A DNA stretch of 39,360 nt, taken from an uncultured bacterium. GTDB lineage: Bacteria > Patescibacteriota > Minisyncoccia > Phycocordibacterales > GWA1-40-21. Positions 1 to 6,418 of this stretch are shown in pieces. The position numbers and the translations under genes are program-made. The notes under the pieces are model-generated. The model did no database searches. It was not told where the DNA came from and saw only the letters and a program-made list of their open reading frames with translations. Each line of letters begins with the position of its first letter. Positions within the stretch are counted from its first letter, which is position 1. Location of the stretch: contig CAIKXE010000007.1 in NCBI GenBank assembly GCA_903831305.1, positions 1-39,360 on the forward strand, written 5' to 3'.

Positions 1-29
1 TCCAGGCTCATCAATCCCTAGAACCGCAG

Positions 30-893
30 ATGCAAGAGGTATTAGATGAAAAGCTGAAGGATTTTGGCCCCGAGGCCGACAAATACCGCAAGAAAAGCGC
101 TGATATGAAGCACTTAACCGAGATTGACAAAAAGACCCAAGTCAATGAAACTCTGACTCGAGATGACCTCCTCTTCCTGTATGAAGTAAATGACCCTATT
201 GAAGGTTTTGGTTATGACACCGATCCCCGGATTAAAGAAATCCGCAGTAAAAGGAGCTATAACAATGACGCCTGTATTATTTTTAATTGTGAACTCTCTC
301 AAATCGCTATTGCCCCGGAAGAAATCAAACCTGACACCGTCGCCTATATCGGTCCTTGGGATCCAAAAGTTTTGCAAAAACTTCCGCCAACCACCAAATA
401 TATTTATGAATCCTTTCCAGACAAGAAAGTTTTCCGCAAAGAAATCACCCCCGATCCGGAAATCACTTCCGCTGAGACTGCGATTACTAAATTAGAAGCT
501 GAAGGACATAAAGTTTATGACTATGCTAAAGATATGCTCACCAAAGTAAATTGGCAAGAGACACTAAAATCGGCTTACGACGTCGTCTCTTTCTCGGTCG
601 GTGATCTATTTAACAATAGCCAAATTCACACTTACGCCGATATCAAAGCTAAGGCTCAAGAGCTGGGACTGGACTTAATCCCTCAAGCCCTAGTTCCAAC
701 TATCCGTCTAAATTATCCTAAAACTGGCGACTGGACCGTCATGGCTTTGAAGGAATCTATACGTGACCGCGATGGCAGCCTCAGGCTATTCTACTGCTAC
801 AGGAATGGTGCTGAATCCTGGCTCCGCAGCCACTACGGCCACGAGGACAGCAAGTGGAACTCCGACCATCGGTTCTTCTTTGTCCGCAAGTAA
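30..893 (+). CDS. DGR target (variable) protein. The frame stays open back to the window start, so the true N-terminus may lie upstream.
   Basis: 287-aa ORF. Its last ~45 codons (..IRDRDGSLRLFYCYRNGAESWLRSHYGHEDSKWNSDHRFFFVRK) form the VR copy of a TR found 430 nt downstream. The C-terminal ..RFFFVRK tail resembles the GFRxxR-type ending of C-type-lectin/FGE-fold DGR targets. There is no in-frame stop between nt 3 and the ATG at 30. Confidence 0.85.
   Translation: MQEVLDEKLKDFGPEADKYRKKSADMKHLTEIDKKTQVNETLTRDDLLFLYEVNDPIEGFGYDTDPRIKEIRSKRSYNNDACIIFNCELSQIAIAPEEIKPDTVAYIGPWDPKVLQKLPPTTKYIYESFPDKKVFRKEITPDPEITSAETAITKLEAEGHKVYDYAKDMLTKVNWQETLKSAYDVVSFSVGDLFNNSQIHTYADIKAKAQELGLDLIPQALVPTIRLNYPKTGDWTVMALKESIRDRDGSLRLFYCYRNGAESWLRSHYGHEDSKWNSDHRFFFVRK
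755..890 (+). repeat. DGR variable region (VR)
   Basis: 136-nt match to 1185-1320 at a constant offset of 430. The 15 mismatches are at VR 756, 758, 778, 792, 798, 825, 826, 829, 831, 834, 850, 854, 864, 867 and 890. Each corresponds to an A in the TR copy, and every non-A position is identical. Confidence 0.9.
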
Positions 894-1184
894 CTTAATT
901 CTTATTTCTTAAATTTTAACTCTATCCCTTAATTTCTTTTTCCTTTATTCTTAATCCGTGCTAAAATAGCTTGGAAAGTAGGCGAATACGCTGGCGATTA
1001 CGGTTTCCAGCTGCCGAAATTAGTATCCATATATCCAGAATATCCGCGATTAAGGTTTCGGGTAGCGTGGTATATGCAGATCTTCAAAAAATGAAGTTAC
1101 TTGGTTCGAAATCTGGGGCATTATGATGCCAAATAATATTCAACCCTGCGAGTATTCTAGGGGTGGTGGTAAAGATGGATTTCG

Positions 1185-1320
1185 AACAATACGTGACCGC
1201 GATGGCAACCTCAGGCTATTCAACTGCAACAGGAATGGTGCTGAATCCTGGCTCAACAACAACAACGGCCACGAGGACAACAAATGGAACTCCAACAATC
1301 GGTTCTTCTTTGTCCGCAAA
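1185..1320 (+). repeat. DGR template region (TR)
   Basis: Invariant copy of the VR. Read in the VR frame it carries 12 Asn codons (AAC/AAT), 10 of which are replaced in the VR (N to S, Y, Y, R, S, H, Y, S, D, H). It has no credible translation context of its own. Homology breaks at non-A mismatches on both sides (1184 and 1322). Confidence 0.9.
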
Positions 1321-1324
1321 TCAC

Positions 1325-1750
1325 TCATTTCTCTCCTGTTTTGTCAGGGGAGTTTTGTTTTAAGGTTTGTCCCAGCCATCCACCGAGGATTTTGCCGATT
1401 TCGTCAGTTTTTTCCGACAAAGCAATATATTTTTTATTATCCAGCGATTTGTTTTCCCAAAGAATAAGCAGAAAAATATTCAGAGTATTTATTTTTCGGA
1501 TAGCTAGGCGTATATAGGGTGTTTTTTCTTCCCGAGACAGAAAAATGGCGATAGAAACGGTTTCAATTGCATCAGTAAACAGACTATCCACTTTTTGACC
1601 GATAGTATTTCTGTGACATTTAGGCAAAATTCGGTAATACTCATACCATTGTTGATAGACTGTCTTTATTTTCTGAATAACTGACGGTAATTTGTTAGCT
1701 ATGATTGTTGCGGGGGGGGGGTGACTTATAGTTTTCTTTATTATGTCCAA
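1325..1750 (-). CDS. avd: DGR accessory variability determinant (Avd; four-helix-bundle / 23S rRNA IVS protein family)
   Basis: 141-aa helical, basic protein between TR and RT. The LPKCHRNTIGQKVD and C-terminal EIGKILGGWLGQTLKQ segments resemble Avd proteins as I recall them (not verified). The only in-frame start is TTG at 1748-1750. It is encoded on the strand opposite to VR, TR and RT. Confidence 0.75.
   Translation of the reverse strand: MDIIKKTISHPPPATIIANKLPSVIQKIKTVYQQWYEYYRILPKCHRNTIGQKVDSLFTDAIETVSIAIFLSREEKTPYIRLAIRKINTLNIFLLILWENKSLDNKKYIALSEKTDEIGKILGGWLGQTLKQNSPDKTGEK
1331..1361 (+). terminator. Hairpin plus T-tract immediately 3' of TR (terminator-like, or DGR RNA spacer structure)
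   Basis: ctctcctg (1331-1338) pairs with caggggag (1345-1352): 8 bp including one G-U, with a 6-nt loop. It is followed by ttttgtttt (1353-1361). It lies inside the 3' end of the antisense avd ORF. Confidence 0.4.
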
Positions 1751-2744
1751 AATCCAATTTATTCATAAGTACGAGGATATCATATCTGTGGAAAATCTCC
1801 TAGAGGGATGGAAAGAATTTTTACATGGGAAGAAGAAAAAAGCAGATGTTTTGATTTTTCAAAATAATCTGATGCAAAATATTTTCTTACTTTATCAAGA
1901 TTTGGAAACAAAAAATTATAAACACTCGGAATATCAAGTGTTTAATATTTTGGACCCTAAACCAAGAGTAATTCATAAAGCTAAAGTCAGAGACAGATTA
2001 TTACATCATGCGTTATATAGATATTTATATCCATTTTTTAATAAGACTTTTATTGCCGATTCTTTTTCCTGTCGATTAACCAAAGGGACGCATCGGGCGA
2101 TAGAAAGATTTAATAGCTACTATCTTAAGGCTTCCAAAAATAATACCAGGCAAGTTTGGGTTCTGAAATGTGATATTAGAAAGTTCTTTGATTCCATAAA
2201 TCATAAAACATTACTAAAAATATTAGGTTCATATATTGAAGACAAAGAGATTATAGGACTTTTGCAAATAATAATTGGCAGTTTTTACAAAAGAGAAAGT
2301 GGCGTGGGTTTGCCTTTAGGTAACTTAACTTCCCAACTTTTTGTAAATATTTATATGAATGTTTTTGATCAGTTTGTAAAACATATTTTGAAAGTAAAGT
2401 GCTATATCAGATATTCTGATGATTTCGTTATTGTATCAGATAATAAAGTGTGGTTAGAAGAGATTTTAGTAAAAATTAGCGTTTTTCTGGATGAAAAATT
2501 GAAGTTATCTTTACACCCAAATAAGGTGTCCATAAATACTTTTTCATCAGGCATTGATTTTCTCGGTTGGGTAAACTTTTCTGACCATAAAGTGCTTAGA
2601 ACAAAGACAAAAAAGAGAATGTTTAAAAGATTAAGAAAAAGTTCGAAAGAAGAAACCGTCAATTCATATTTAGGGATGTTAAGTCATGGAAATACTGAAA
2701 AGTTGAAAACGAAAGTTTTAAATTTTCTACAAAATAAGGGTTAA
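1743..2744 (+). CDS. DGR-type reverse transcriptase
   Basis: 333 aa with RT motifs: LKCDIRKFFDSI (A), GLPLGNLTSQLFVNIY (B, with the SQ signature typical of DGR RTs), YIRYSDDFVIV (C, YxDD) and GIDFLGW (E). There is no maturase or endonuclease extension. It sits beside the VR/TR pair. Confidence 0.9.
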   Translation: MSKIQFIHKYEDIISVENLLEGWKEFLHGKKKKADVLIFQNNLMQNIFLLYQDLETKNYKHSEYQVFNILDPKPRVIHKAKVRDRLLHHALYRYLYPFFNKTFIADSFSCRLTKGTHRAIERFNSYYLKASKNNTRQVWVLKCDIRKFFDSINHKTLLKILGSYIEDKEIIGLLQIIIGSFYKRESGVGLPLGNLTSQLFVNIYMNVFDQFVKHILKVKCYIRYSDDFVIVSDNKVWLEEILVKISVFLDEKLKLSLHPNKVSINTFSSGIDFLGWVNFSDHKVLRTKTKKRMFKRLRKSSKEETVNSYLGMLSHGNTEKLKTKVLNFLQNKG

Positions 2745-2784: not shown

Positions 2785-2985
2785 ATGAGTATGAGAAAAG
2801 ATTGGTCAAAATTATACAAGAAATATAAGGGGATGTGGGTGGCTTTGGCATCTGACGAAATGACCGTTCTTGGTGTAGGAAAAACGGTAAAAGAGGCCAT
2901 TTCCAAATCAACTAAAAAGAGTAAAGAAACCCCAATTCTTACAAGAATACCAGAAAATCTGGTTTCCTATGTAGGCTCACTATGA
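2785..2985 (+). CDS. Small hypothetical protein, DUF5678-like (possible antitoxin-like partner of the downstream protease)
   Basis: 66 aa. The pattern KYKGMWVALASDEMTVLGVGKTVKEAISKS resembles DUF5678-type small proteins (recalled, not verified). Its stop overlaps the next start (ATGA at 2982-2985). Confidence 0.5.
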   Translation: MSMRKDWSKLYKKYKGMWVALASDEMTVLGVGKTVKEAISKSTKKSKETPILTRIPENLVSYVGSL

Positions 2986-3380
2986 AATTTGATTACAAAC
3001 GATATGATACAAACACGCTCAGACCGGTGATACCGGTAAAATTGAAGAATAGTGAGACTAGTATTGGCTATGAGGTCTTGGTAGATTCCGGTGCTGATTT
3101 GTGTATCTTTGATGCTGAAATAGGCGAAGCACTTGGCCTTGACATAAGAAAAGGTAAGGTAAAAACAGTTTTTGGTGTTGGCGGAAAATCATCAGTTTAT
3201 TATTTGCATAATATAGAAATTGAGGTTGGTGGCTGGTCCTATAAAATTGAAGCTGGTTTTATGCTTGATGTCGCTGGAAGGGTTATGCCATTTGGACTCG
3301 TTGGACAAAAAGGTTTCTTTAATAATTTTATTGTAAAGTTTGATTTACTTAAAGAAGAAGTAGAATTAAAGAATAGATAA
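2982..3380 (+). CDS. Retropepsin-like (clan AA) single-domain aspartyl protease
   Basis: 132 aa. VLVDSGADLCIF contains the D-S/T-G-A catalytic motif. The size fits a homodimeric retropepsin-type fold. It is translationally coupled to 2785-2985. Confidence 0.7.
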   Translation: MKFDYKRYDTNTLRPVIPVKLKNSETSIGYEVLVDSGADLCIFDAEIGEALGLDIRKGKVKTVFGVGGKSSVYYLHNIEIEVGGWSYKIEAGFMLDVAGRVMPFGLVGQKGFFNNFIVKFDLLKEEVELKNR

Positions 3381-4611: not shown

Positions 4612-6228
4612 TTAAAGGCGGTCTGAGTTAATTTCTGGCGAGACTGCTAAGTCAAAATCAATCAAATATAGGCGGGGAAGGCGGGCAAAGTCAGGCTCGC
4701 CTTTTTCATTGCGGTAAAAGCGAAGGCAAAAGTTTCCGTCATGAATATGGCCATGATCAAATCCGAGATTCAGTATTGTTTCGGTTATCATATTTCTGGT
4801 TTCAATTAGCTGTTCCATAAATATGTATGTTTTGGCTAGCCAGTCTTTCAAACTTATGTCTAAAACTCCGGTATAAGCATCAACCATGCCGTCAGTCGCT
4901 AGTTTGTAAGATATTATAGGTTCGATGGGCACATAATCAAAATCTTGTTTTTGCCAAAGTGAATAATTTTCAAATAGTTTTTGCCAGGCCGAAAATGCTT
5001 GTGGCGTAATGTGGCGTATTATAGCTTGATCTTTTAATTCACCACCAAGTAGGGTAGTCTCCGAACCAGATTTACTAAAGCCTTGTCTAGAAAAAGTTTC
5101 AGCACTAATATTTTTTTTCCGATACAGTGGTGGTTTTATCAACTCACGCCCCAGGCCTTTCTCGAAGGCAAGAGTAAATAAGGCACGTTTTTTATCATAA
5201 GGGGCGTAGTCAATCATTTCAGCAGCCAGCCGTTGTATTTCTTGGCTTGGGTTGTCCAAGTTTGTCCTGATTAAGGAATCCTTTTCATCTAGATGGGCGT
5301 ACTGAACCATTTGCAGAGATATCATCTGTGTTTTTAAATCTGAGCTATTCAAACCAAGTTTAATTAATTTCCCGATTTCAGATAAGGAAGCATATTCAAT
5401 CATCCTAGCTGCGAGTCTCTGTATTTCAATATCGGGATTTGTAAGACCAAGCCGAATATAGCTGGAGCGTTCATCCTGTTTCAGATATTGGCAAAGACTC
5501 AACCCTAATTTTTGCTCGTTTTGATCCAAACTGTTTAAACAACCCATTATCTTTTCTCTAGCAATTTTACTAAAGATCTCTTTGTCTCGGTTTGATAAAT
5601 ATTTGAGAATTCCTGGAGTAATATTTTGTTTTTCCGTCTCAAAGTTTTCTAAATCCAGCTTTATTTTATTAGCGATATTTTCTCTTAGTCCCAGTCTGTC
5701 TTCCTCCGGGGTATAGGCTATCATTTCAGCATATTTTTCCCATTTCTCGCGGTCAGCTGTTTCGAGCCCGGTCTTTATTTTTTCAGCTACCAATTTTCTT
5801 AATTCCATTCGTTCATCATCTGAGGCTAAAACTACCATTTGTGCCGCTATTACTTGCGTTTCAACGTGAGTACTCTCTAGTCCTTGTCTAGTTTTTTCAC
5901 TGACTATCTTTCTAAGCCCATCTCCATCTTCCTCGGGAGCAAAGCAAATCATTCCTGCGGTGATTTTTTGTACTTCTATATCGGTATTATCAAGGCTTGT
6001 TCTTATAAGCTCCGCTCTTTTTTCTGATGGGGTATTTTTAATGGTATTTATCAGAGAATAGGGAGAGTTTGCGATAAAACCATCCAGGTCCTGTTTTTTG
6101 TCAGCTTGATAACGATCAAAAGAGTGCTTGTTAACTGGGTCCTGACCAGGGATTTCATACATTTTTAAATAGTCGGGGAGTTCACCTTCAATATCAGTAA
6201 ACTCTTTTTTTGTCTCGGTATTTTCCAT
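4612..6228 (-). CDS. HEAT-like repeat protein with C-terminal atypical kinase-like domain
   Basis: 538 aa with about 8 tandem 31-39-aa helical repeats (e.g. PDIEIQRLAARMIEYASLSEIGKLIKLGLNS and PSQEIQRLAAEMIDYAPYDKKRALF). The C-terminus has FDHGHIHDGNFCL (HxDxxxxN-type catalytic loop) and LYLIDFDLA (DFG-equivalent). Confidence 0.55.
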   Translation of the reverse strand: MENTETKKEFTDIEGELPDYLKMYEIPGQDPVNKHSFDRYQADKKQDLDGFIANSPYSLINTIKNTPSEKRAELIRTSLDNTDIEVQKITAGMICFAPEEDGDGLRKIVSEKTRQGLESTHVETQVIAAQMVVLASDDERMELRKLVAEKIKTGLETADREKWEKYAEMIAYTPEEDRLGLRENIANKIKLDLENFETEKQNITPGILKYLSNRDKEIFSKIAREKIMGCLNSLDQNEQKLGLSLCQYLKQDERSSYIRLGLTNPDIEIQRLAARMIEYASLSEIGKLIKLGLNSSDLKTQMISLQMVQYAHLDEKDSLIRTNLDNPSQEIQRLAAEMIDYAPYDKKRALFTLAFEKGLGRELIKPPLYRKKNISAETFSRQGFSKSGSETTLLGGELKDQAIIRHITPQAFSAWQKLFENYSLWQKQDFDYVPIEPIISYKLATDGMVDAYTGVLDISLKDWLAKTYIFMEQLIETRNMITETILNLGFDHGHIHDGNFCLRFYRNEKGEPDFARLPRLYLIDFDLAVSPEINSDRL

Positions 6229-6316
6229 GTTTCTACTATTATAGCGGAAATATAGATTTAGCCAAACTGTTCTTATCTTTAGTAGCTTAATTTTACTTGG
6301 AGTTATCCACAGGGAA

Positions 6317-6382
6317 GTGGAAATTTGGTTTGTATTGTGGGATGAAGTGTTATAAAATAGTATCTAAGTGGGAGATCGTGGG
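6317..6382 (+). promoter_or_regulatory. mraZ promoter with GTGGG direct repeats (MraZ-box-like operator)
   Basis: TTGTAT (6330-6335), 17-nt spacer, TAAAAT (6353-6358). GTGGA at 6317-6321. GTGGG at 6337-6341, 6368-6372 and 6378-6382; the last two are 10 nt apart and just downstream of the -10. Confidence 0.55.
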
Positions 6383-6418
6383 AAATGGTAAAACAATCAC
6401 TTACTACTAAAAAATATT

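Follow-up and report, generated by a model that had tools for sequence, protein, structure and literature searches.

The 39,360-nt stretch of DNA analysed here (the window) contains a genuine diversity-generating retroelement (DGR), a reverse-transcriptase system by which the end of a single protein is recoded at positions templated by adenines. Its kind is known, its helper RNA has an unusual layout and its control region carries a G run of variable length. We read it as a chromosomal DGR of the type found in Patescibacteria (CPR), including the RNA mechanism proposed below and a G10 run that is probably a contingency tract, and we give this reading as a whole a probability of about 0.9. The components of the cassette are listed in Table 1.

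Table 1. Position of the cassette components in the window.
Feature	Position	Strand	Remarks
DGR target gene, 3' part	3–893	+	296 codons plus stop; frame open from base 3
VR	755–890	+	Final 45 codons of the target; ungapped match to TR, offset 430; secure core 759–889
VR 3' junction, IMH-like boundary	887–903	+	Last codon AAG, stop TAA, then CTTAA...; unlike the TR 3' flank
Putative extended -10 promoter-like box, TGcTAAAAT	958–966	+	For the TR-containing RNA
Putative DGR RNA	973–1361	+	Structured leader, TR, 3' flank, terminal hairpin, U run
Leader hairpin HP1	981–1015	+	Helices 1–2: 12 pairs, 6 changed on both sides, 100% paired
Leader hairpin HP2	1028–1076	+	Helices 3–4: 17 pairs, 7 changed on both sides
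Block A (AAAUGAAGUUACUUG)	1089–1103	+	Nearly invariant; proposed primer-strand analogue, partner 1317–1330
Helix P3, 11 bp	1104–1187	+	1104–1114 with 1177–1187; encloses HP3, A-rich single strand and P4
HP3	1117–1130	+	Within P3
P4	1143–1164	+	Within P3
TR	1185–1320	+	Ungapped match to VR; secure core 1189–1316
TR 3' end and flank, IMH*-like	1317–1330	+	Partner of block A
Terminal hairpin and U run	1331–1361	+	8-bp hairpin (1331–1352), then UUUUGUUUU; intrinsic-terminator-like (terminator scan)
avd homologue	1325–1750	-	141 codons if TTG 1750 is the start; PF22296, NF033474
G10 homopolymer	1712–1721		C10 on the avd coding strand, codons ~10–13; candidate phase-variation tract
DGR-type RT	1743–2744	+	333 aa; RVT_1 8.4e-24; best PDB relative 8ub7_A

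The relationship between VR and TR is the hallmark of the element. The original prediction had paired the two repeats without gaps and counted 15 mismatches, all of them at TR adenines, and re-alignment reproduced the pairing, the count and the coordinates: an A in TR is replaced in VR by a G at TR positions 1208, 1256, 1259, 1280, 1284, 1294 and 1320, by a T at 1186, 1188, 1222, 1228 and 1264, and by a C at 1255, 1261 and 1297, with no mismatch at a C, G or T of TR over the 136 nt. Given the composition of TR (45 A, 38 C, 28 G and 25 T), the probability that every mismatch would hit an A is, by the hypergeometric distribution, 1.0e-8 for 755–890 and 7.9e-8 for the 13 mismatches of the secure VR core (759–890). 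As also predicted, TR contains 12 AAC/AAT (Asn) codons when read in the frame of VR, and 10 of them are changed in VR. More specifically, 11 of the 13 core substitutions affect codon positions 1–2; since the differences at TR adenines lie mostly in positions 1–2 of AAY codons, about ten positions are recoded in the last 45 residues of the target. An independent repeat search recovered the pair as 759–902/1189–1332, and no additional TR-like copy was found on either strand of the window. Note that a spurious ORF (1123–1467) encloses TR, which falls within it only because TR is homologous to VR. The same bias characterizes the relatives: across eight related cassettes, VR and TR differ by 162 mismatches at A versus 2 elsewhere.

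Comparison with the related cassettes also helps to delineate the segment that is copied. TR positions 1186 and 1188 are located upstream of the point where the VR/TR homology starts in these cassettes, and the two corresponding mismatches may lie outside the copied segment. At 1320/890, TR has A and VR has G (Lys AAA versus AAG) in all ten cassettes, which thus represents a fixed boundary difference of the IMH*/IMH type and not a product of random mutagenesis. With these three boundary positions set aside, 12 of the 15 differences are, judging from the alignments, clearly mutagenic. The 3' flanks of the two repeats differ consistently in the ten cassettes (...CGCAAG TAA CTT for VR versus ...CGCAAA TCAC TCATTT for TR), a configuration that is IMH/IMH*-like by sequence, and the nearly invariant GCAAGTAACTT that follows VR is replaced by CGCAAATCAC after TR. 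No GC-rich inverted repeat was found downstream of VR (890–960); because this feature is not universal, being present in only 34% of DGRs, its absence is compatible with membership of the class.

The element had also been described as active or recently active, a statement that is not supported as written, as it relied solely on the absence of non-A differences. The DGR might instead be dormant or switched off, in which case the adenine signature would reflect past retrohoming and there would be no present diversification; we regard this as a serious possibility, albeit not the probable one. The VRs of two contigs of one related element that were recovered independently by homology (L005 and L019) are identical, which is in line with dormancy (retrieval by exact protein match, in contrast, favours contigs whose VRs are identical). 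Two relatives are decayed, one having kept the RNA but only fragments of avd and RT (L016), and the other displaying a truncated RT and non-A mismatches (L029). Furthermore, avd is out of frame with any start codon in three relatives, and in the window it relies on a TTG initiation codon overlapping the beginning of RT. Dormancy is, however, at odds with the integrity of the RT and avd ORFs and the presence of all the RT catalytic motifs, as well as with the fact that VR and TR show no non-A difference in 132 nt while the TRs of the relatives differ at many non-A sites, so that homogenisation by retrohoming must be evolutionarily recent.

The ~210 nt upstream of TR are best described as a structured RNA, a conclusion well supported by covariation. 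A profile built from ten cassettes matches 973–1363 as one unit (E 7e-131). In the RNA structure, which comprises 70 pairs, 97.6% of the cells are paired and 24 of the 70 pairs show a compensatory change, compared with 10.9 ± 1.9 in shuffles (0/500) and 1–7 in slid controls. Besides HP1 and HP2, compensatory changes are found in helices 7, 8 and 9 of the P3 assembly (3, 3 and 2 pairs, respectively) and in helix 11, i.e. the terminal hairpin (2 pairs, 100% paired). Folded as a single sequence, the RNA is no more stable than shuffles (z = -1.2). The interaction between block A and 1317–1330 comprises 11 pairs in RNAalifold, with 95–97% of the cells paired; it displays one compensatory change (U1097–A1323 to A–U in L032), the changes being G–U-compatible elsewhere, and one mismatch in L017. 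Because block A and its partner hardly vary, the duplex rests on that one compensatory pair. The apical part of HP2 resembles HP1. Note also that the terminal hairpin overlaps the 3' coding end of avd on the opposite strand, which is itself a constraint.

Upstream of this RNA, the TGnTAnnAT pattern of the putative promoter box, which a simple -35/-10 scan missed, is kept in the aligned cassettes, strong conservation begins ~7 nt downstream at GAAAGTAGG, and an RpoD-type sigma factor is encoded in the window. Neither the window nor any of 12 related loci gave an Rfam match at the gathering level. A weak partial match to RF03028 (RT-7) was observed at 1034–1086 (22.1 bits versus a gathering score of 116.8, E 0.003): the first hairpin of the RT-7 motif (CCAGA.U...AAGG...AG.GUG) resembles the HP2 region, but it is the only part to match, 142 model positions being skipped. 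Like the cassette RNA, the Rfam RT motifs, which include RT-7 and RT-10 (the Bordetella spacer), are structured RNAs lying beside bacterial RT genes.

The DGR of Bordetella phage BPP-1 (mtd-VR, avd, TR, Sp, brt) offers an instructive comparison. Both systems have RTs that are homologous over their full length and share the SQ and Y-x-DD motifs, an Avd homologue, a TR of ~130 nt with AAY-rich coding, adenine-only divergence, a C-terminal VR, TR and VR 3' flanks that differ (IMH*/IMH-like), a stem-loop right after TR and an 11-bp helix at the TR 5' edge. Unlike in BPP-1, (i) avd is found between TR and RT, in reversed orientation; (ii) a structured RNA of ~210 nt is found 5' of TR, as opposed to a 3' spacer of 140 nt in Bordetella; (iii) the cassette RNA has an apparent promoter and terminator of its own; (iv) VR is followed neither by a GC-rich inverted repeat nor by a GC-rich 14-bp element; (v) the target is something other than the tail protein of a phage, and the element resides in a chromosome and has no phage genes around it; (vi) a G run is present in the avd/RT control region.

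In the Bordetella DGR RNA, the Avd-binding stem-loop comes directly after TR, and the order of elements observed by cryo-EM is a primer strand, 2 nt, an 11-bp stop duplex, a short stem-loop, adenosines, a single strand and a stem-loop. The primer and stop strands, the short stem-loop, the A-rich strand and the stem-loop, which reside in the 3' spacer there, are found 5' of TR here, and the terminal hairpin occupies the position of the Bordetella Avd-binding stem-loop. By analogy, the succession of leader, TR and terminal hairpin can be read as the Bordetella DGR RNA with its elements circularly permuted, and such a permutation would explain why avd is able to sit inverted between TR and RT. 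Alternatively, the leader might not be the equivalent of the spacer: the functional spacer would then lie 3' of TR and extend through antisense avd, and the 5' structure would be a regulatory leader, a stability element or a protein-binding module. This alternative, which we deem unlikely, draws on the location of the Avd-binding stem-loop and the second stop-duplex strand downstream of TR, both in Bordetella and in a survey of 278 DGRs, on the low covariation of the block A pairing and on the possible leakiness of intrinsic terminators. It is countered by three observations: the region 3' of TR encodes avd on the opposite strand and comes after a hairpin and a U run; every described element of the Bordetella spacer is present in the leader, at a similar size and in unchanged order, among them an 11-bp helix (P3) that ends where the VR/TR homology begins; and L016 has kept the whole RNA unit although its avd and RT genes are reduced to fragments.

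If the RNA is indeed permuted, the mechanism could be as follows. A non-coding RNA of ~390 nt would be transcribed from the extended -10 promoter near 958–966, would end at the hairpin and U run (1331–1361) and would be bound by RT and Avd. Pairing of the leader segment 1089–1103 with the TR 3' end and flank (1317–1330) would generate a template:primer duplex, which would place the start of cDNA synthesis at ~G1316. TR would then be copied with misincorporation opposite A, until copying halts at P3 (1104–1114 with 1177–1187), whose 3' strand ends 1–2 nt before the VR/TR homology; we thus propose the whole P3 assembly (1104–1187) as the reverse-transcription stop. Finally, the cDNA would replace VR.

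The G10 tract, which precedes the start codon of RT by 21 nt, is the sole G or C run of at least 7 nt in the window, and each of the ten intact cassettes has a run of G7–G11 at the equivalent site between avd and RT. Its length differs between sequences that are otherwise identical: L005 (G11) and L019 (G10) show 0 mismatches over 1765 nt, and one related element, 100% identical elsewhere over ~3.4 kb, has a tract of G7 in four samples and of G8 in five. In three relatives (L007, L008 and L017, all G10), avd lacks a start codon in its frame and would regain one if the tract were G9; in the window, avd at G10 is in frame only with TTG 1750, which overlaps the RT start (1743). This pattern of sequence variation suggests that the G run is a phase-variable switch. 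It recalls the poly-G/C contingency loci of Neisseria, Campylobacter and Bordetella, where a G/C run likewise sits in a promoter region or at an ORF 5' end (7–11 nt here), where tract length also differs between otherwise identical sequences and where a change of frame removes or restores a start codon. Those loci control surface antigens, whereas the tract described here adjoins the genes of a mutagenesis machine, which, from its position in the sequence, it may control. Because it is located between two divergent genes, it could affect both. The run at the avd 5' end is thus probably a slipped-strand contingency tract that would switch or tune the expression of the mutagenesis machinery.

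The run could also be a fixed feature, such as a spacer within a promoter or the codons of a Pro-Pro-Pro stretch in Avd, its length differences being sequencing or assembly errors. Homopolymers are error-prone and differences in length between assemblies can be technical; besides, all five contigs of the P0001/L013 type display G9, and some upstream start codon is available in two of the three frames in the window, so the on/off effect of the tract is not clear-cut. We nevertheless find this explanation doubtful: G7 is the consensus of four independent sample assemblies and G8 that of five, the ~3.4 kb being otherwise identical, the tract is held within 7–11 nt in cassettes with diverged flanks, and it has no counterpart among the G/C runs of the 39 kb. 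Illumina chemistry reads runs of 7–8 reliably.

The proteins encoded by the cassette are those expected from the prediction of a DGR-type RT with an SQ-containing motif and YSDD, together with an Avd-like protein. Both RT motifs, of the DGR-lineage forms [I/L]GxxxSQ (motif 4) and YxDD, can be read in the translation, and the best solved relative of the RT is the Bordetella phage DGR RT (8ub7_A, E 8.8e-44, residues 11–311), with LGNLTSQLF and YSDD aligning to IGSLTSQLF and YMDD. Among the other solved RTs, those of group II introns score 6.8e-23 or worse, the 5hhl/5hhj chains, called 'retron-type' by their depositors, 2e-21, and the retron and Drt RTs 1e-4 or worse; in this ranking by similarity to solved structures, the RT stands closest to the DGR group. 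NCBIfam, which has no DGR RT model, returned group_II_RT_mat as the best match, at 134.7 bits and hence far under the cut-off of 300, and Rfam detected neither a group II intron RNA nor a retron RNA. The idea suggested by that NCBIfam match, namely an ordinary partial gene duplication beside an unrelated retron or group II intron RT, is vanishingly improbable, being refuted by the adenine-only divergence (P ~1e-8) that recurs in eight relatives, by the lead of the DGR RT over other solved RTs (21 orders of magnitude in E-value), by the Rfam result and by the presence of an Avd homologue.

The Avd homologue was found as a minus-strand gene. Its best and only meaningful family matches are bAvd (PF22296, 1.3e-8, 35.7 bits for a cut-off of 40) and DivGenRetAVD (NF033474, 1.3e-12, 47.9 bits for a cut-off of 80), both covering residues 23–126; as both scores are under the curated cut-offs, we consider the assignment as homology backed by context and not as a curated call. 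The avd orthologues of the related cassettes have precomputed matches to PF22296 and the same position and strand.

The cassette had been presented as complete, with a target ORF spanning 30–893. This has to be revised: the frame is open back to base 3 of the window and the closest homologue (P0001, 67% identity) is 497 aa long, indicating that the target gene is truncated by the window edge and that its 5' part lies outside. The 62 target homologues are all unannotated Patescibacteria proteins without a Pfam domain, and neither an FGE-sulfatase nor a DUF1566 Pfam signature was found in the target. The AF2 model of the target part has a pLDDT of 94, and that of the VR-bearing domain a pLDDT of 97.4. 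A Foldseek search of the PDB with the variable domain gave no match at E <= 0.001 (BFVD was similar) and no known DGR variable protein among the structural matches; the top five hits are weak (E 0.05–0.5, TM 0.30–0.42) and correspond to domains of C-type lectins or to a fibre tip domain from Bdellovibrio. As in the DGR variable proteins with a C-type lectin fold (Mtd, TvpA and archaeal AvpA), VR is C-terminal in the target and ends in an R-F-x-F-V-R-like strand, and the variable residues are predicted by the model to lie on a β-hairpin and a loop of a small α/β domain. The target differs from these proteins in that no solved structure resembles its variable domain significantly (best E 0.05).

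About ten related cassettes from Patescibacteria have the same layout as the present one, target(+) TR(+) avd(-) RT(+). The homologues come from MAGs of Paceibacterota, Moranbacteria, Parcubacteria and Saccharibacteria, with no viral contig among them, and the window contains core genes (metK, rsmH, PBP, Mur ligase, uvrA, rpoB, rpoC, dnaG and rpoD). The 5' leader RNA, its permuted logic and the G tract have no description in the DGR literature covered by our survey. As the original prediction acknowledged, the class itself is not new, such DGRs being already known as common in Patescibacteria. A DGR clade that is restricted to CPR and whose targets lack known domains has been reported (RT 'clade 2', Roux et al. 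2021), and architecture B3 is stated to account for 90% of CPR DGRs (Wu et al. 2018). Judging from its written description, the present layout looks like the B3 type. As far as these descriptions go, nothing contradicts the membership of the cassette in the CPR group, with which it shares a Patescibacteria host, a chromosomal location, a target devoid of transmembrane segments and known domains, and an order and orientation of avd and TR unlike those of Bordetella.

Re-alignment of the variable repeat (VR, 755–890), at the 3' end of the target gene, with the template repeat (TR, 1185–1320) at an offset of 430 yielded 15 mismatches and no gaps. All 15 lie on a TR adenine (A to G in seven cases, A to T in five and A to C in three), position by position as in the original prediction, and none affects another TR base in the window pair. 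With 45 A in the 136 nt of the TR stretch, the hypergeometric probability of 15 out of 15 is 1.0e-8; the core recovered independently by a repeat finder (759–890) contains 13 differences (P = 7.9e-8). The count of substituted Asn codons holds as well: read in the frame of the target ORF, the TR has 12 AAC/AAT codons, ten of which are changed in the VR. Across the eight scorable related cassettes, 162 VR/TR differences fall on A and two elsewhere. One refinement is that three of the 15 mismatches (1186, 1188 and 1320) are boundary positions. Positions 1186 and 1188, which are just 5' of the start of VR/TR homology in related cassettes, may lie outside the copied segment; one related locus, L001, has a non-A mismatch near this TR 5' boundary. 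The difference between A1320 and G890 (Lys AAA versus AAG) recurs in all ten aligned cassettes and, on that alignment, is therefore a fixed difference between TR flank and VR flank, of the kind that distinguishes the 3' boundary elements IMH* and IMH, and no mutagenesis event. Scanned on both strands with the non-A positions of the TR, the 39,360-nt window showed no TR-like copy beyond the VR and the TR, hence no second target. Note that a 114-codon ORF (1123–1467) spans the TR in the VR frame; its N-terminal part is structured leader and its C-terminal part antisense avd, and it most likely arises from the homology between TR and VR and is no gene.

The enzyme genes fit this picture, so that the interpretation as a diversity-generating retroelement (DGR) is supported by the adenine-only divergence, a DGR-type reverse transcriptase (RT) and an Avd homologue. 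The 333-aa RT (RVT_1, 8.4e-24) has as its best solved relative the Bordetella phage DGR reverse transcriptase (8ub7_A, E = 8.8e-44, residues 11–311), against 6.8e-23 for the best group II intron RT, about 1e-21 for the 5hhl and 5hhj chains (deposited as 'retron-type' RTs) and 1e-4 or worse for Retron-Kva2 and Drt3a. The SQ motif and the YSDD box, from which a DGR-type RT had been predicted, align with their counterparts in 8ub7_A (LGNLTSQLF with IGSLTSQLF, YSDD with YMDD); NCBIfam is without a DGR RT model, and the matches of the window RT to its RT models are all far under the cut-offs. The Avd-like protein (accessory variability determinant) also stands, with its strand corrected to minus: over residues 23–126 of its 141 codons, the avd ORF matches bAvd (PF22296, 1.3e-8) and DivGenRetAVD (NF033474, 1.3e-12), both under the curated thresholds yet the sole meaningful matches, and its orthologues in related cassettes receive the same Pfam assignment. 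The claim of completeness does not survive: the reading frame of the target, listed as 30–893, stays open as far as base 3 and the closest homologue measures 497 aa, so the gene is truncated by the window edge and its 5' part lies outside the window. A search with the exact sequence of the window's RT, aimed at recovering this 5' part, found no matching record.

The window carries metK, rsmH, PBP and Mur ligase genes, uvrA, rpoB, rpoC, dnaG and rpoD, and is ordinary bacterial chromosome. Related loci (designated L001, L005, etc.) from GTDB genomes belong to Saccharibacteria or Patescibacteria MAGs, JGI metagenomes contributed seventeen more, and a search for a viral origin found no target relative in IMG/VR contigs. 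Ten distinct cassettes share one layout: the window, L001, L005, L007, L008, L012, L013, L014, L017 and L032. A Patescibacteria-restricted DGR clade, with targets devoid of recognisable domains, was reported by Roux et al. (2021). The class, the host lineage and, as far as checked, the gene layout are already described, and the DGR itself, one more example in a class known to be enriched in CPR (Patescibacteria), is ordinary. The features that merit follow-up are the polymorphic G tract and the leader RNA, whose logic would be permuted.

Features of the DGR cassette and its surroundings (window coordinates unless a related locus is named)
Feature	Position	Strand	Remark
Target gene	3–893	+	
Extended -10 box, conserved	958–966		precedes the structured leader
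TR RNA	973–1361	+	
Two similar leader hairpins	981–1015 and 1028–1076		
Block A	1089–1103		nearly invariant
Helix P3	1104–1114 with 1177–1187		11 bp
Short hairpin	1117–1130		inside P3
A-rich single strand			inside P3
Small stem	1143–1164		inside P3
TR flank	1317–1330		includes the 3' end of the TR
Terminal hairpin	1331–1352		8 bp, then UUUUGUUUU; also picked up by terminator scan
avd	1325–1750	-	
G tract, window	1712–1721		G10
RT	1743–2744	+	
DUF5678 protein gene	2785–2985		66 aa
Retropepsin-like aspartyl protease gene	2982–3380		132 aa; Asp_protease_2, 1.5e-6
G tract, L005	3246–3256		
G tract, L019	1455–1464		
G tract, L032	7210–7216		
G tract, L033	7210–7217		
Cassette layout			target(+), ~300 nt, TR(+), avd(-), RT(+); same in ten distinct cassettes

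Between VR and TR lies, to judge from the alignment, a conserved structured RNA (leader, 973–1187) and no mere 'spacer'. From the VR to avd, the alignment of the ten cassettes displays high conservation from the TGnTAnnAT box onward, together with many compensatory changes. We counted a structure of 70 pairs on this alignment, with the decayed relative L029 left out: 97.6% of the cells are paired, and 24 pairs show changes on both sides, compared with 10.9 +/- 1.9 in column shuffles (none of 500 shuffles reached 24) and 1–7 in slid controls. Including L029, RNAalifold proposed different long-range pairs that were poorly supported. The single-sequence folding energy of the RNA is indistinguishable from that of shuffles, so the case for the structure rests on covariation, on which footing we regard it as established. 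Block A pairs with the TR 3' end and its flank according to RNAalifold, and the sole change in block A, U to A in L032, is matched by A to U in the TR flank. A profile search found exactly one full copy of the TR RNA unit in the window (973–1363). No Rfam family reached gathering level for the leader/TR RNA; the second hairpin (1034–1086) gave a partial match to the first hairpin of RT-7 (RF03028; 22 bits versus a gathering threshold of 116.8), one of the RT-associated motifs of Weinberg et al. (2017), which may be a related RT-associated RNA from another lineage. Among decayed relatives, L016 keeps a complete TR RNA unit (6005–6397, nhmmer score 400) beside mere fragments of avd and RT, and in L029 (6025–6452) the RT is truncated, the G tract is absent and the VR/TR mismatches affect all four bases.

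The leader block 1087–1103 is also complementary to the VR 3' junction (887–903) at 15 of 17 positions, and ten contiguous complementary bases (CAAGTAACTT) are found in eight of the ten cassettes. We considered block A as an RNA guide to the VR DNA and rejected this: in L032 it is the TR flank that carries the change compensating for that in the leader, and complementarity to the VR flank extends there over only ~5 nt. As the complementarity is lost in L032, we read it as a side effect of the pairing between block A and the homologous TR flank; it may still contribute to target recognition.

To our knowledge, what DGR reverse transcription requires of its RNA has been worked out in one system only, that of Bordetella. 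In the cryo-EM study of its RNP (preprint 10.1101/2023.10.23.563531), the RNA comprises, in this order, the upstream strand of a stop duplex, the TR (with the template strand TR117–129), an Avd-binding stem-loop, a linker, the primer strand (Sp47–56), 2 nt, the stop strand (11 bp), a short stem-loop, adenosines, a single-stranded 'thumb ring' and an RT-binding stem-loop; the stop duplex lies just beyond the end of the cDNA. The window RNA has the same neighbours in the same order, with the circle opened between the Avd stem-loop and the primer strand: an analogue of the primer strand (block A), directly followed (0 nt instead of 2) by the 11-bp P3, a short hairpin, an A-rich strand and a stem, and then the other strand of P3, the TR, the template strand and the terminal hairpin. 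P3 ends 1–2 nt 5' of the start of VR/TR homology, like the Bordetella stop duplex beyond the cDNA end. The first copied base would be G1316, adjoining the C1317:G1103 pair, and with that start the fixed difference at 1320 (AAA/AAG) would not be copied. Such a permuted arrangement would free the interval from TR to RT, occupied by the inverted avd, of any need for RNA elements; the RNA would be a self-contained non-coding molecule of ~390 nt with primer strand, stop helix and RT-binding elements 5' of the template. By analogy with Bordetella, we lean slightly towards this permuted reading and towards the priming and stop roles that it assigns to block A and P3. If confirmed, a natural permutation would reveal which relations are essential, namely a primer strand by the stop helix and a stop helix at the 5' edge of the template, and would offer a compact, self-terminated RNA for engineering.

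The G tract is the sole run of at least seven G or C in the window; it lies inside the first avd codons (Pro, on the minus strand) and precedes the RT start codon by 21 nt. A run of G7–G11 stands at the same place in each of the intact related cassettes, although their flanks differ. The length itself varies: L005 (a GTDB MAG) and L019 (a JGI contig) differ over 1765 nt solely by G11 versus G10, and the element encoding P0011 (P numbers denoting homologues of the target) has G7 in four and G8 in five of nine sample assemblies that are otherwise identical over ~3.4 kb. Technical errors would be a rival explanation for such length differences. Reading-frame analysis of avd was equivocal: in L001, L012 and L013 (G9) an in-frame avd ATG stands 7–9 nt before the tract, while in L007, L008 and L017 (G10) avd is without any in-frame start, which a G9 tract would restore (in L007 as an ATG located 3 nt before the run). 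In the window, at G10, avd is in frame only with a TTG at 1750, overlapping the RT start. The tract could also set the spacing of an RT promoter, since a TATAGT-like box follows it in most cassettes. From these sequences, a slipped-strand switch is the most likely meaning of the tract, ahead of a fixed structural role and of technical errors, and we give it somewhat better than even odds. A hypermutable poly-G common to the divergent avd and RT genes would then be a stochastic on/off contingency locus for a targeted hypermutator, and a tract toggling Avd and/or RT, if confirmed, a simple and testable answer to the problem of limiting the cost of hypermutation. A full-text literature search found no paper linking DGRs with homopolymer phase variation. 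Note that L037 and L038, two contigs of the P0011 element, end ~120 nt past the G tract; breaks of this kind would be consistent with a bubble in the assembly graph, produced by a sample containing tracts of mixed length. Altogether, we put at roughly 0.4 the probability that this lineage runs on a circularly permuted DGR RNA and an avd/RT machine under a stochastic poly-G switch.

As regards the presumed present activity, the TRs of relatives differ at many non-A positions, and the window VR shows no non-A difference from its TR; in evolutionary terms, this shows that VR and TR were homogenised recently. No pairs of contigs from the same element with different VRs, which would be direct evidence of activity, were found, near-identical pairs either sharing the VR or leaving it uncovered, in a retrieval by exact protein match that is biased against such pairs. 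The VR is identical in L005 and L019, which are independent contigs of a single related element.

The target fragment belongs to no Pfam or NCBIfam family. A search of a large protein collection returned 62 homologues, all unannotated; where a source is named, it is a MAG of Paceibacterota, Moranbacteria, Parcubacteria or the 'Patescibacteria group'. Common to them is a C-terminal module of ~150 aa, with ...W....RFFFVRK at its end, whose AAY-templated positions are hypervariable between homologues. Their N-terminal parts differ: the 250-aa forms have a segment rich in Lys and Glu that resembles a coiled coil, and the window's type has a larger region. The sequence of the full-length relative P0001 shows no evident signal peptide or transmembrane segment. 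AlphaFold models are very confident (pLDDT 94 with the 296-aa fragment, 97.4 with only the last 155 aa) and place the VR on a beta-hairpin, a loop and the last strand of the variable domain. Foldseek gave no match for this model at E <= 0.001 in PDB and BFVD; the weak top matches (E 0.05–0.5, TM 0.30–0.42) are C-type lectin domains (MCL, BDCA2, DEC205 CTLD3) and a Bdellovibrio fibre tip domain, and the DGR variable proteins already known are absent among the matches. Pfam and NCBIfam searches on six family members and a profile search against PDB brought nothing meaningful for the fold. The predicted domain would be either a very divergent member of the C-type lectin fold or a different small alpha/beta scaffold. 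The family supplies a confidently modelled scaffold for a variable binding site in minimal-genome organisms.

Several family members are orphans or form tandem arrays without an adjacent RT (L006, L009, L018, L021, L024, L027 and L034). The arrays comprise two to four paralogues of the variable C-terminal module, with neither RT nor avd adjacent (L009, 6001–7727; L021, 1249–2524; L024, 1–2897), and many family members (L006, L018, L027, L034 and L044) are solitary; both kinds could be targets served in trans, or relics. The loci of P0005, P0002, P0030, P0042, P0013 and P0018 showed no adjacent RT or avd and yielded no extra RNA sequences; an RT gene is listed at the P0028 locus, which likewise contributed no RNA sequence.

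Base composition changes between 1400 and 3400: G+C is 28–31% over avd and RT and 31–38% over the two small genes after them, compared with 42–46% in the target, the TR RNA and the flanking core genes, and RT is the most AT-rich part in most related cassettes checked. The low G+C of avd and RT could reflect a peculiarity of codon usage or a foreign origin of the enzyme genes. The two small genes, directly 3' of RT, overlap; L001 and L032 have a PemK-family toxin gene at this position, which suggests that addiction-type modules travel with the cassette. Further downstream, a 538-aa ORF on the minus strand (4612–6228) has no Pfam match; by eye, it contains repeated '...D.EIQRLAA.MI.YA...' units, HEAT-like in appearance, and a C-terminal HGHIHDGN...IDFD motif reminiscent of kinase-like folds.
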